Source of the DNA: Escherichia coli
GTDB lineage: Bacteria > Pseudomonadota > Gammaproteobacteria > Enterobacterales > Enterobacteriaceae
Length of the DNA stretch: 64,000 bases
NCBI RefSeq assembly: GCF_048403405.1
Contig: NZ_CP183129.1
Reading direction: 5' to 3' (one strand)
Shown here: piece by piece, positions 41,901 to 47,900 of the stretch
How the letters are laid out: each line of letters starts with the position of its first letter
How positions within the stretch are numbered: the stretch's first letter is position 1
Position numbers: made by a program

Positions 41901-44900
41901 CGCCGCTATCAGGCACAAATCAATGCGCTGAAGGCGACGCTGGACAGCCAAAAAATAACGGTATCGGTGATTCAGGCAAATCAGGGAAAAATTAATGTGA
42001 TGCATAGCTATCATTCGCTGGGGCGGGTATTACGCGATGCTGGTTTTCGCTTTCCGCCGCTGATTGAGAGCATTCCTGAAGGTGGGCGAATGGATGTGAG
42101 CGCAGAGCGTTTACCTGAACTGGATGCCGATTTTGTTTTTGCAACCTGGCGCGGTGACACCGGTGGTAAACCTCAGGATGAGCTGGCAGCAATGGAAAAA
42201 GTCATGCCGGGATGGTGTCAGTTTCTGACGGCCTGTCGTTCCGGGCGCTATGTGCTGATTTCTCGTGAAGAGGCGATTTCTAACTCCTTTGCATCTCTGG
42301 GGCTGATGGCTGCGCAGATACAATCACAAATTGCGGGACGACCTCTACCGGAGGCTAAATGATCCAGAAAGACAAAACGCGGGTTGATATTTATGGTGAG
42401 CGTTTTCGCACTCGCGCGAGTCAGTTAACGCCTGGGTTAAGAACTGTCGCAAGCTACATTAATGAGCATCGTGAAGTGGTACTCGAGCAAACGGCGATGG
42501 AAATTGCGGCCACGTTGAACACTTCCGATGCCACAGTTATCAGGGCTATACAGGCTCTGGGGTTTGCCGGGCTGCGTGATCTGAAACGCACACTGGAACA
42601 GTGGCTTGGTCCAGCCCTTAGTTCCAGCGAAAAGATGTCTACGACGGTGAGTAACTTGACGAGCGATGTTAACACCGCAATCGACTTTGTTCTTGAAGGG
42701 CATTTGTATACTTGTAATGTCCTGTCAGAGCCTGAAAACCGCCACGCGCTTGCGCAAGCTGTAGCGTTGTTGGTGCAGGCACGGCAAGTCGCTATTTTTG
42801 GCATTGGCGCTTCGGGTATCCTGGCGGACTATACCGCACGACTATTCAACCGCATAGGTTTGCCTGCCACGGCACTAAACCGTACGGGTATTGGCCTTGC
42901 CGAGCAACTGATCGCGCTTCAACGTGGCGATGTTCTGATCATGATGGCGCAAAAATCTGCGCACCGGGAAGGGCTGACAACGCTTCGTGAGGCGAGGCGG
43001 CTGGGGATCCCTGTTATTTTGCTGACAAACGCGCTGGATTCACGTTTTAGCAAAGACGCCAGTATCGTGATTCATGTTCCGCGCGGGGATGAAAGGGGGA
43101 AAACGCCACTACATGGTACGGTATTGTTGTGCCTGGAAATGATTGTTTGGTCGGTGGCTTCCGCGATGCCGCAGCGTGCGGTTAAAACCATTAAGCGAAT
43201 TAACGATTTCCATCGGGGTTTGAAAACGGGAAGAAAGAATGGCTAATCTGACCTGAGGCCGGTAGCAACACCGGCCTCTTTTCAGGAATGTTAAATCCCC
43301 GGTTGCAGAATACGGATATTCATCTCCAGCACGTCGCCTTTTACGGCTTCGCTGTACGCCTTCATGTGCGGGGTTTGCAGATGCGCTTCAAGATGCGCGA
43401 TGCTTTCCCACTGCTCAATCATCACGATAGAATCCGGTGCCATAGACTGGAAACTCACGCCAGCAGCGCAATCCACCATTGGCGTATAGCCGTGGCAACC
43501 TTCTTCTTTCAGTACGGTTGGAACGATTTTAGCAAACTGATCCAATACTGCCTGACGGTGATGTTGACCAGGACGAGTACGGATTTCTGCGATTACGGTA
43601 AGCATGGTTAACTCCTTCTAAAGCCTGAGCTCTAGTTAACCAAAAATTTCCACAAGATGCTTGCGATATTCTTCAGTATAGCGGGGAACATCAGGCATTT
43701 TTATCACGTCATTAGCGATAAATGTCGGCAGCGGTTCCATGCCAAGGAATTGGTTTGCTTTATGGAACGGCAGATACACACCGTCAACGCCAACGCCGTG
43801 GAAGAACTGATCTTTTTCGGTGAAGGCTTCCATTGGTGCGTTCCAGGTCAGAGAAAGCATATATTTTTTGCCCTGTACCAGGCCGCCGGAACCGTATTTT
43901 TTCGACGGATCTTTGCGGGTACGACCATCGCTGGCATACAGCGTCCCGTGACCTTCGGTGAATACATCATCAATGTATTTTTTCACTGTCCACGGCGCGC
44001 CCATCCACCAGCCTGGCATCTGCCAGATCACCACATCAGCCCAGAGAAAGTTTTGTACTTCCGCTTTGACATCGTAGTCGCTGTCGGCGCGAACGATGCG
44101 GACATCATGCCCGAGGTCGCGCAACGTGCCATCCGCGACTTCGGTCAGGGTGTCGTTCAGTTGACCATTGGAGTGGGCGAATTTTTTCGCGCCGTTGATA
44201 ATCAGGATGTTGCTCATTTTTTAACCTCAAGGTGAGACGTTTGTCGACTATAGTACGTCACAGAGCGGTACGGTGAAATTAGCAAAATGTGCAAAGTCTT
44301 TTGCTAATTTAGCAAAAGTCTGATCTTGCTCTGATTCACCGATGCGGGATAAATATTTTCTGAAAATGACAATACTGAAATCAACTTCCTATAAGTTCCC
44401 ACAGGAGAGATGTATTATGTAAATGATAAAGTAGTTTTTCGGAAAAAATAATCATGGAGAATATATATGTCAAATATCATATACTTATCAATTAAAGGAA
44501 AAACACAAGGTTTGATCTCTGAGGGCTGTGGTTCGTATGCATCTATTGGTAATAAATATCAAATAAATCATGTGGATGAAATTTTTGTTTTACAGTTCGA
44601 CCATTCTTTAAGTCGAGAATATAATGTAGTGCATCATCCCATAAAATTTTACAAGCCAATAGATAAATCCTCTCCTTTATTAAATGCTGCTCTTTCTGAA
44701 AATGAAGAGTTATCAGCTGTATTTAATTTTTATAGAATTAATTCTGGCGGTTGTATTGAAAGGTTTTACACAATTGAATTGCAAGGGGCATATTTATCGA
44801 ATATTCTGACTTGTTATCCACACTCAATTACACATGCGGGTAATCAACCGGAAGAGGTCATTGTTCTTAATTATAAAAATATAACATGGAAGCACCATAT

Positions 44901-47900
44901 CGCGAGTACGGAATCATATAGCTGTTGGGAAGAAAGGATTTTTTAAATATGAAAAGCGATCTCACTATAAAAAATAGATATTGTACAATTCCACAAACGA
45001 AGTTCCGTAAATGGGATGAAATGGACGTTTTACTCTGGAAGTTAGGAAAAAATGATTCGCGTCGCCGTTCAGGAGTATATTATTTAAATGCTTATAAAGA
45101 TGCATATGTACAATATAATAGGGACAAAATAATTAAACATGCATATGCCGCAGGGATTCGTCCAGAGTTATTGGGCGGCGTGGCCTGGATTGAGTCAGGA
45201 GGTATGCCTGAAAATTATAAGTTTCAGATATATGAAACAAAAAGAATGATCGGATCGTTAGATATGCCTGAAAATAAAACATCATTTGGCTCAATGGGTA
45301 TACAAATACGAACCGCAGCGATTACTCTAGGCCTTGACCCTTCAGAATTAACTACCAGAAATCAGTTAGAGTTAGCGACATGCCTGATGGAAGATGATTT
45401 TACCTTTAAAATTGCTGCTACTCATTTAAGAGATCTTGCCCTTTTTGATTATCCCTCTTCGGCAACACTGTATATGACGAATGAGCAGTATATTATGGCT
45501 GGTATTAGATATAATCGTGGTGTTGAACGAGATTTGGGTTTTTTTATTTATTTAATTAATAATTTGCCTGCGCGTGATACAGATGATTATAAATTCATCT
45601 CTTATGGTATGAGGTTGTTAGAGATTAGAGAACATATCAAAAAATTGATCAATGAGTAATCAGAGATGTTAAAAAAACAACTACTATCAATATTTGAAGC
45701 ACTATTATACATAATGCTTACTTATTGGTTAATAGATGCTTTTTTTGCTTTCAATAAGTATGACTGGATGCTTGAGTCGGGAGACAATATTTGCAGTATA
45801 CCTTCCGTTTCAGGCGAAGATCGTATATTGCAAGCAATGATTGCAGCATTTTTTCTTCTGACGCCACTTATTATTCTTATCTTAAGAAAACTCTTTATGC
45901 GGGAAATGTTCGAGTTTTGGCTATATGTATTCACGCTCGTTATTTGTTTGGTTTGTGGTTGGTGGCTTTTTTGGGGACGGTTTATATTTTGCTAATAGTA
46001 AAATCTATGAGAGTCGTTTTAACGGCTCTCATAGACAGAGAAGTTACCAGCTCACCTTCGCCTCAAATCCACCTTGTTCCGCATTCCCAAACTCAACATT
46101 CATGCCATGCAATTTGGCGATTCGCTGGACAATCGATAGCCCAAGTCCACTGCCGGTAGCGGTTTGTCCGGGTGGGCGATAGAAGCGTTCGCCAATTCTC
46201 GCCAGTGCCTCTGGCGTCACACCGGGGCCGTTATCCCTCACGATGAAATTTTCGGCATTCAGCGTGACGTCCACCACGCTGCCCTGTGGACTGTAGCGCA
46301 CGGCGTTATCCAGAAGGTTTCGTACCAACAAACTTAGCAACAGCGGTTGTCCGGTGCGTTTGATGCCGTGGGCATTGAGTGTCAGTCGCACGTCAATTTT
46401 CGCCTGCTGCGCCGTGTGGTAAATATCCATCACCGATGATTGCAGGAGATCTTCAAGCGGGATCTCCGCGACGTCCTGAAGGTTATCCAGTGAGTCCAGC
46501 CGCGATAGCGTGAGCAGTTGATCAACCAGACGAGTAGCACGATCGATTCCGGAATGTAATTGAAGCAGCGCTTTTTTCCGCGCCTGCGGATCATCGTCAG
46601 AGAGCTGCGCAACTTCGGTTTGCACTTTCAGCGCCGTTAACGGGCTACGTAGTTCGTGAGCTGCGTCGGAGGTAAAACGTCGTTCACGAACCATCATCGC
46701 ATGTGTGCGGGCGAACAGTTGATTCAACGACTCAACCAGTGGACGCACTTCGCTGGGTACGCCCGTCGCGTTTAGTGGTTTTTCCGAGTCAGGGTCACGC
46801 ATACGTAGTGCCAGCGCCAGTTTGTTCAGCGGCGCGAGTTCACGACCCAGTAGTACCATCATGATGATTAACATAATCGGCAGTGCGACAAGCCACGGGA
46901 TCAATTGCCCGGCAACAATCGCCAGCGCCATGTCTTCGCGGTATTCCCATTCCTGACCAACAACGATGCGATATTTGCCATCAGGTGAGGTCATCCAGAC
47001 AAAACGCCAGGGATCGTCTTCACCGACCAGTTGCCCGTCAGCAAAACCTTCCCGTTGATAGCTATAGGGAATATCTTCTCCGTTATCGCCATCGTTAAGG
47101 ACCATTCTGCCGTCGTGGGTAAAGATGGCAAAGGTCAGCGCATCGTCATCAACATGACCGTGTTTTAATTTATTTGGCGTCTGTGCCATGCGATCTGCCG
47201 CGTTGATTTCGTTGAGATCGAGCGTACTTAACCGCTTGGCAAACAGCATCAGTTGGGTGTCGAACAACTCATCGACGTTATCCGTTGTTTGTTTCCAGGC
47301 GACAAAGCTGGAAAGCAGCCAGGTCACTGAGGCCAGAATTAAAAAGATTAGCGTCAGCCTGACTCGCAGACTAAGACGTTGGGTAAATTTCATTTCTCAC
47401 CTAATGTGTAGCCAATACCATGAACGGTACGAATAAAATCACTGCCGAGTTTGCGTCGCAGATGATGCACATGCACTTCAACGGCATTACTGGTGACCTC
47501 TTCGTCCCAGGTATACAGTTTCTCTTCAATCAGTTTGCGCGGCAGTACCCGACCAGCGTTACGCATCAGTAATTCCAGCAGGGCAAATTCTTTTGGTTTC
47601 AGTGTTAAGGGTTCGCCAGCCAGCGTGGCGATACGTTTGCCGGGGTCGAGCATGACGTTACCGTGGCGCAGTTCGTTGCTGGCCTGGCCGTTGGTTCGGC
47701 GCATCAGAGCTTCCAGCCTGGCGGCGACTTCTATCAACGCAAAAGGTTTACACAGATAATCGTCAGCTCCCAGACGCAGCCCCTCTACACGTTCCGCTAA
47801 CGCATCGCGCGCGGTCAGGATCAGTACCGGCTCACGCTGACCTTTTTCTCGCCATTCGCGCAAAATATCGCGACCATCCATGCCTGGTAAGGTTAAATCC

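Follow-up and report, generated by a model that had tools for sequence, protein, structure and literature searches.

What is the function of the three genes that lie between mdaB and qseC in the chromosome of some Escherichia coli strains? We addressed this question for a 64,000-nucleotide stretch of E. coli DNA (contig NZ_CP183129.1 of assembly GCF_048403405.1, hereafter the window), in which an earlier note had described, from the sequence alone, three co-directional and tightly spaced genes at this site. The coordinates of the open reading frames (ORFs) agree with that description: an hcp gene, a second gene hereafter called gene 2, and ygiZ form three intact, tightly packed ORFs on the plus strand (Table 1). 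Gene 2 starts 2 bp past the hcp stop codon, as the same note had stated (TAA at 44944-44946, ATG at 44949), and ygiZ starts 6 bp past the gene 2 stop codon. An in-frame TTG at position 44925 would lengthen gene 2 by eight codons and make it run into the 3' part of hcp; the ATG at 44949 is the start in RefSeq and in all homologues. We propose that the three genes probably constitute a type VI secretion system (T6SS) module, which encodes a peptidoglycan glycosidase effector delivered by Hcp together with an immunity protein of the DUF2645 family, and which is used by a T6SS located at aspV.

The 159-aa product of the first gene had been recognized as an Hcp, and the profile searches bear this out. 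It matches the NCBIfam model TIGR03344 (TssD) over residues 1-157 of 159 (E = 4.5e-59; 199.1 bits, the curated cut-off being 58.9 bits), the Pfam model T6SS_HCP (PF05638) over model positions 1-129 of 129 (9.3e-20), and solved Hcps with E-values of ~1e-21; by these matches, gene 1 is a true Hcp. The protein is 56-60% identical to the Hcps that are linked to the same module in other genera. The Hcp-ET architecture, in which Hcp and a toxin form one polypeptide, is not found in the window, as the TAA codon at 44944-44946 splits the ORFs. The possibility that this orphan gene is the published hcp2B of avian pathogenic E. coli was ruled out because hcp2B adjoins vgrG2 within the T6SS-2 region (PMC5874247).

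Gene 2 belongs to a large family. Its close homologues (54-98% identity) were found in Enterobacterales only, and every one of them is annotated as a hypothetical protein; the full-length protein cluster comprises 2565 member sequences, and an exhaustive search of 1.84 billion representatives yielded 311 relatives at E<=0.001, themselves representatives at 50% identity. A first AlphaFold2 model, built from 25 close homologues, was poor and was discarded (predicted local distance difference test score, pLDDT, 61.5). The model built from 109 diverse sequences, aligned from the exhaustive search, has a pLDDT of 90.9 and a predicted template modeling score (pTM) of 0.88, and displays a lysozyme-like alpha-helical fold with a substrate groove. 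The predicted fold is GH23-like, i.e., of the type shared by SLT domains, goose lysozymes and lytic transglycosylases, and appears closest to that of Tse3 from Pseudomonas, even though the two proteins are only 14% identical. Searches of NCBIfam and PADLOC returned nothing useful for gene 2, and a search of the PDB with the single sequence returned nothing meaningful and did not retrieve Tse3.

The conserved residues of the family are consistent with a glycosidase. In an alignment of hidden Markov models (HMMs), Glu82 of gene 2 falls onto Glu250 of Tse3, which has been identified as the catalytic residue by mutagenesis, and Ile246/Glu250, Gly276/Gln280, and Tyr376 (Tse3 numbering) are common to Tse3, MltE, and the g-lysozymes (PMC3792639). 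Three corresponding motifs can be recognized in gene 2: V78..W-I-E82-S83, in which the putative catalytic Glu is followed by Ser; F-G114-S-M-G-I-Q119, which exceeds the classical GLMQ by two residues; and R-Y188-N-R-G191, which is of the A-Y-N-x-G type. Residues E82, G114, Q119, Y188, N189, and G191 are each at least 90% conserved among the 109 diverse homologues, and the family has in addition conserved N-terminal W22, D26, and W30 beyond the classical SLT core. The protein lacks a signal peptide and any transmembrane or hydrophobic segment, and would therefore need a secretion system to reach peptidoglycan.

The third gene had been described as encoding a small three-helix membrane protein, and its product indeed contains three hydrophobic segments. 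It is named ygiZ in RefSeq and matches the Pfam family DUF2645 (PF10840; YgiZ/YjeO) over residues 13-109 (E = 1e-10). The N-terminus is basic (KK), the loop between residues 29 and 54 is acidic, and the loop between residues 74 and 82 is basic (RK..R). An inner-membrane topology with a cytoplasmic N-terminus, a periplasmic C-terminus, loop 29-54 in the periplasm and loop 74-82 in the cytoplasm would fit both the hydropathy and the charge distribution. In the DUF2645 proteins that adjoin effector homologues, a motif WM..E/G..C in the periplasmic loop and a C-terminal Cys are conserved; the two conserved Cys are Cys43 and Cys109. The ygiZ allele of the window is one codon short at 45993-45995, encoding a protein of 109 aa (...FIFC) that keeps the terminal Cys; the YgiZ alleles of strains Nissle, WS1933D, and K-12 have 110 aa (...FIFCY).

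The trio of genes for Hcp (159 aa), effector (~240 aa), and DUF2645 protein (~110 aa) recurs in five other genera, in differing genomic surroundings that are both chromosomal and plasmid-borne. In Pectobacterium it is located between pagP and eamA; in Serratia it adjoins traI and traX on a 75-kb conjugative plasmid; in Rahnella it is carried by a megaplasmid; and in Erwinia the hcp gene is present though uncalled in the annotation. Another enterobacterial genome has the trio between an ABC transporter gene and polB, with an effector that is 45% identical to gene 2 and a 109-aa downstream protein of the same architecture as DUF2645 that remains under the Pfam threshold. The mdaB-qseC site itself, with the same neighboring genes, is occupied by the module in a contig that we provisionally assign to Citrobacter (L022; the label is taken from the NCBI name of a related protein, P0031). 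The locus is therefore old and variable, and not a recent insertion specific to E. coli. This refines the earlier note, in which the AT-richness had suggested horizontal acquisition: the block is indeed AT-rich (GC content 0.29-0.39 across 44200-46000 as compared with ~0.46-0.57 on either flank, in 300-bp windows) and variably present.

A DUF2645-type gene lies downstream of every examined effector with at least 36% identity to gene 2, at distances of -4 to +6 bp. For instance, a metagenomic PAAR-toxin fusion, with a toxin domain 38% identical to gene 2, is followed by a DUF2645 gene, stop and start codons overlapping. The toxin-DUF2645 pair thus stays constant while the delivery component changes, as is expected of an effector and its immunity protein. 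More distant relatives, which are fused to Rhs proteins or encoded on Cronobacter plasmids, have other genes downstream, which is the expectation for diverged toxin-immunity families. In-frame fusions between Hcp and the effector were seen in two cases only. In contig L022 the hcp and effector frames are fused at 2605-3711, a fusion from which the final 3 codons of Hcp and the initial 22 of the effector are missing, and the hcp part has a premature stop at codon 31; in P0002, a protein from a JGI metagenome, Hcp residues 1-99 are joined to the effector. A related fragment from C. freundii is named 'Hcp, partial' by NCBI.

In the longer relatives of gene 2, the toxin domain occupies the C-terminus of polymorphic-toxin carriers. 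Among 66 such proteins, Pfam detected eCIS_core in 11, OmpA in 5, PAAR in 2-3, and PG_binding_1, WXG100, and Phage_Mu_F (SPP1 gp7) in one each; the SLT model matched weakly inside the toxin domain, once at E<=0.001 and seven times at E<=0.1. An Rhs core was found in 3 of 10 relatives scanned with NCBIfam. One further metagenome protein, P0005, has an unrelated, signal-peptide-like N-terminus of 120 aa, to which residue 45 onward of a toxin domain of the E. coli type is joined. P0005 comes from a single 3-kb ENA contig, which may be a chimeric assembly.

Within E. coli, the locus occurs in three states. The whole module is present, at 95-100% identity, in 1261 of 5426 complete genomes (~23%). 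Most of the remaining genomes, including the K-12 derivatives, match only at the mdaB end and across ygiZ-qseC, which agrees with the earlier note, according to which K-12 has ygiZ alone at this position. Finally, O157:H7 and some others have a clean 109 bp from mdaB to qseC and lack ygiZ. The junctions, as mapped by blastn, are at window positions 44321/46044 for O157:H7, whereas in K-12 the similarity extends to 44398 and resumes at 45688. The K-12 state is not a clean deletion of the window allele, since ~120-160 bp of unrelated sequence separate the 44398 junction from ygiZ. Three E. coli alleles of the module, ~3% apart, have all ORFs intact, and the ratios of nonsynonymous to synonymous substitution rates (dN/dS) between them, all from small counts, are 0.10-0.18 for hcp, 0.07-0.14 for the effector gene, and 0.19-0.50 for ygiZ; these values do not suggest decay. 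We regard ygiZ as the retained tail of the module rather than a separate core gene.

A paralogous locus presents a similar picture. Between yjeM and mscM, 45 of the 5426 complete genomes encode a paralogue of the effector that shares 36% identity with gene 2. On its flanks are two DUF2645 genes of the YjeO family and remnants of the insertion sequences (IS) IS630 and IS1. The K-12-type genomes retain only yjeN and yjeO. Both DUF2645 genes of K-12 thus occupy sites where other strains hold a toxin of the gene 2 family. YjeN was also considered as a possible effector remnant, and this was ruled out as it has no similarity to the effector.

The T6SS to which the module could belong was sought in a genome that is nearly identical to the window. 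Positions 14002-64000 of the window match E. coli strain U1 (NZ_CP041359.1) with 99.998% identity over 50 kb, and with 100% identity in the module. The earlier note had stated that no VgrG, PAAR, or Tss genes occur in the 64 kb; this holds for the 50 kb of U1 that match 14002-64000, in which none is annotated, positions 1-14001 lying outside this gene-by-gene check. The same note had named absence of T6SS machinery from the rest of the genome as a ground for doubt; what we found in U1 is a cluster at aspV that contains tssA, B, C, E, F, G, J, K, and M, the genes for DotU and a ClpV-like ATPase, tagH, vasI, a VasL-domain gene, two hcp genes, vgrG, and an Rhs gene. Judged by its gene content, this T6SS is complete. 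A T6SS at metV of strain U1 was ruled out, as no island is present there. Strain U1 also has an ETT2 island for type III secretion that is largely intact, and a prophage-like island at a tRNA-Gly gene (NZ_CP041359.1, 254-281 kb). Another carrier of the module is Nissle 1917, which we take to belong to sequence type 73 (ST73). Genomes of ST73 consistently contain a tss region (PMC10711316).

Comparison with known systems shows which parts of the module have precedents. The closest fold to that of gene 2, by its predicted model, is that of Tse3 (Tge1), which together with Tsi3 forms the pair of peptidoglycan muramidase effector and immunity protein of the H1-T6SS in Pseudomonas aeruginosa. However, the N-terminal domain that Tse3 has is missing from gene 2 (236 aa vs. 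~400 aa), which also does not show the similarity expected of a Tge1 family member and is linked to an orphan hcp outside a T6SS cluster. The known immunity proteins of Tge effectors are soluble and periplasmic, e.g., Tsi3, which has a signal peptide (PMC3792639); YgiZ, a three-helix membrane protein, is not Tsi3-like, Tsi3 being a beta-protein. The GH23/family 1 lytic transglycosylases, among them Slt70, MltE/EmtA, MltC, and MltF, and the goose-type lysozyme differ from gene 2 in other respects: gene 2 is not detected by the Pfam SLT model, has neither a signal peptide nor a lipobox, includes the additional N-terminal W22, D26, and W30, and is found in the context of a polymorphic toxin and not of a housekeeping enzyme.

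The arrangement of the module is more familiar. The orphan Hcp-effector-immunity islands and Hcp-ET proteins of Enterobacteriaceae (Ma et al. 2017, as cited in PMC6730261 and bioRxiv 2024.03.05.583533) likewise have hcp away from the T6SS cluster, with toxin and immunity genes directly after it; unlike in Hcp-ET, hcp and toxin are separate ORFs in the window, and the Hcp-ET example described in the citing papers carries a nuclease domain of the HNH/colicin type. VT5 of enterotoxigenic E. coli (Ma et al. 2018) is a lysozyme-like T6SS effector said to share a GLxQ motif with Tse3; VT5 is encoded downstream of vgrG and not of hcp, and our comparison with gene 2 is by description only (PMC6730261). 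As is expected of a T6SS cargo effector with its immunity gene, the module combines a conserved linkage to hcp, PAAR, or Rhs, a co-directional downstream gene that co-varies with the effector, and a T6SS core in the matching genome. None of the other described Hcp-ET toxin domains is known to be lysozyme-like. Orphan Hcp islands that carry an effector and its immunity gene are an architecture already known; the gene 2 family and the proposed role of DUF2645 are new, both being absent from Pfam, NCBIfam, and the searchable literature.

Based on these observations, the suggestion in the earlier note of an orphan Hcp-cargo toxin module is supported by the predicted Tse3-like fold of gene 2, its lack of a signal peptide, the linkage to hcp across genera, and the PAAR and Rhs fusions. 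We propose the following mechanism. The orphan Hcp would serve as a spare tube subunit that most likely binds the gene 2 product inside or on its ring, and the cargo would be exported through the T6SS encoded elsewhere, at aspV. Once in the periplasm of a neighboring cell, the enzyme would cut the glycan chains of peptidoglycan, Glu82 being the presumed catalytic acid. YgiZ would reside in the inner membrane and expose to the periplasm its C-terminal Cys and the conserved acidic loop that contains the other Cys. On that side it may bind or block the toxin and in this way shield the producing cell and its kin. In strains without hcp and the toxin gene, such as K-12, ygiZ would be left as an orphan immunity gene.

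Several observations weigh against this proposal. The fold assignment of gene 2 depends on a predicted model: the protein has zero Pfam matches even at E<=10, SLT (PF01464) included, and a profile search reached Tse3 and EmtA at E ~0.1, which is non-significant alone, the match to Tse3 being confined to the catalytic core. Of the two Hcps of the U1 cluster, the 160-aa one shares only 43% identity with the orphan Hcp and the vgrG-linked one only 27%, so that compatibility with the U1 machine is a presumption. The cargo, at 27.5 kDa, approaches the largest size that is generally quoted for the Hcp lumen. As the antidote to a cell-wall glycosidase, a three-helix membrane protein whose loop has ~26 residues would be unusual, integral-membrane immunity proteins being more typical against membrane-acting toxins. 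The AT-rich block may be silenced by H-NS. Moreover, the literature search yielded no experimental work on the module, no paper that mentions DUF2645, and none that brings together hcp, mdaB, and qseC.

The nature of the antidote leads to an alternative in which genes 2 and 3 remain a T6SS effector-immunity pair, but the toxin acts at the membrane surface, for example on lipid-linked or nascent glycan strands, or as a non-enzymatic membrane perturber, and not on the mature sacculus. Such a target would explain an integral-membrane antidote, and a three-helix inner-membrane protein with a short periplasmic loop resembles the immunity proteins to membrane-acting toxins; the conservation of W22, D26, and W30 outside the classical core also fits. 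We nevertheless regard this alternative as unlikely, given the conservation of the fold and of all three glycosidase motifs, the fusion of relatives to OmpA and PG_binding_1, which are peptidoglycan-binding domains, and the lack of a hydrophobic segment in the effector. It appears slightly less probable still that the block is what is left of an old T6SS island, silent and in decay, neither expressed nor used, in which ygiZ has an unrelated membrane function. The stepwise loss across E. coli, from full module to ygiZ only to nothing, the low GC content of a likely H-NS target, the premature hcp stop in the provisional Citrobacter contig, and the IS elements that fill the paralogous yjeO locus all agree with decay, and the reported phenotypes of ygiZ overexpression and deletion concern solvent tolerance and permeability. 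Against decay speak the ORFs that are intact in three alleles diverged by ~3%, the dN/dS values of hcp and of the effector gene (0.07-0.18), the size of the gene 2 cluster and the number of genomes that carry the module, and a functional-looking T6SS in the same genome.

A lysozyme-like enzyme next to a small three-helix membrane protein also recalls a phage-type lysis pair, i.e., an endolysin-like transglycosylase and a holin-like protein unrelated to T6SS. Gene 2 matches PHROG 11932 (function not assigned; E = 2.2e-29), and one relative is fused to the phage Mu F/SPP1 gp7 domain. However, there are no phage genes near the module, a tblastn search of 50,697 phage records gave no match, and YgiZ has no PHROG match; the enzyme gene comes first in the order; several genera have a conserved hcp directly upstream, and fusions to PAAR and to Rhs occur; and in K-12 the membrane protein persists by itself, as makes sense for an antidote and not for a holin. 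We consider a lysis pair very improbable and rejected it on the grounds of the missing phage genes and matches, the conserved hcp linkage, and the solitary membrane protein of K-12. Returning to the effector-immunity module, we propose further, with confidence a little better than even, that DUF2645 (YgiZ, YjeO) is an unrecognized integral-membrane immunity family directed against new Tse3-like glycosidase toxins on Hcp, PAAR, Rhs, and extracellular contractile injection system (eCIS) carriers.

The features of the locus are listed in Table 1. A GGAG sequence is located 8 nt upstream of the hcp ATG. The promoter-like hexamers at 44423-44452 are not more frequent than expected by chance in the promoter scan, and the promoter and terminator scans of the locus showed nothing beyond chance. 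In K-12, the mdaB-ygiZ intergenic region contains a promoter that is activated by BglJ-RcsB (PMC3950696). The inverted repeat downstream of ygiZ was not reported by the terminator scan because its loop exceeds 8 nt; it is probably the shared terminator of the convergent ygiZ and qseC genes.

Table 1. Features of the mdaB-qseC region, in nucleotide positions of the window.
Feature	Position	Strand	Remark or basis
mdaB	43636-44217	-	left flank of the block
Intergenic, presumed promoter region upstream of hcp	44218-44466	+	junctions mapped by blastn
Orphan hcp (tssD), 159 aa, 18.2 kDa	44467-44946	+	Pfam, TIGR03344
Gene 2, predicted T6SS cargo effector, 236 aa, 27.5 kDa	44949-45659	+	GH23-like predicted fold, putative catalytic E82
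Gene 3, ygiZ (DUF2645), 109 aa, predicted immunity protein	45666-45995	+	Pfam, RefSeq name
Inverted repeat, 9-bp stem CTATGAGAG/CTCTCATAG, 12-nt loop	46005-46034	.	sequence inspection; blastn self-hit in K-12 comparison
qseC	46044-47393	-	right flank of the block, convergent with ygiZ

Two other regions of the window deserve mention. Between parE and ygiN (~36054-43246), an island encodes a TonB-dependent siderophore receptor, a FecCD-type ABC transporter, and a MurR/RpiR regulator; it is absent from K-12-type genomes, in which parE adjoins ygiN, and present in O157:H7. At 15432-15788 and 15808-16165, two tandem copies of ~358 bp, 91% identical to each other, coincide with genes that are annotated in strain U1 as Ibs type I toxins.

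The gene 2 family thus represents a large unannotated toxin family for which neither Pfam nor NCBIfam has a model, which has a predicted Tse3-like fold, and which uses several delivery scaffolds. For ygiZ and yjeO of K-12, the analysis offers a testable proposed function as orphan immunity genes. If this is true, the two genes would protect commensal E. coli from toxin-carrying kin, and lineages without ygiZ, such as O157:H7, would be naturally susceptible. The distribution of the full module, of the immunity gene only, and of neither among E. coli strains would then predict who kills whom in the gut, and Nissle 1917 and the other carriers of the module would be expected to kill O157:H7. A membrane-embedded antidote to a cell-wall glycosidase would, moreover, represent a new mechanism of immunity, and might indicate that the glycan target of these toxins is proximal to the membrane.

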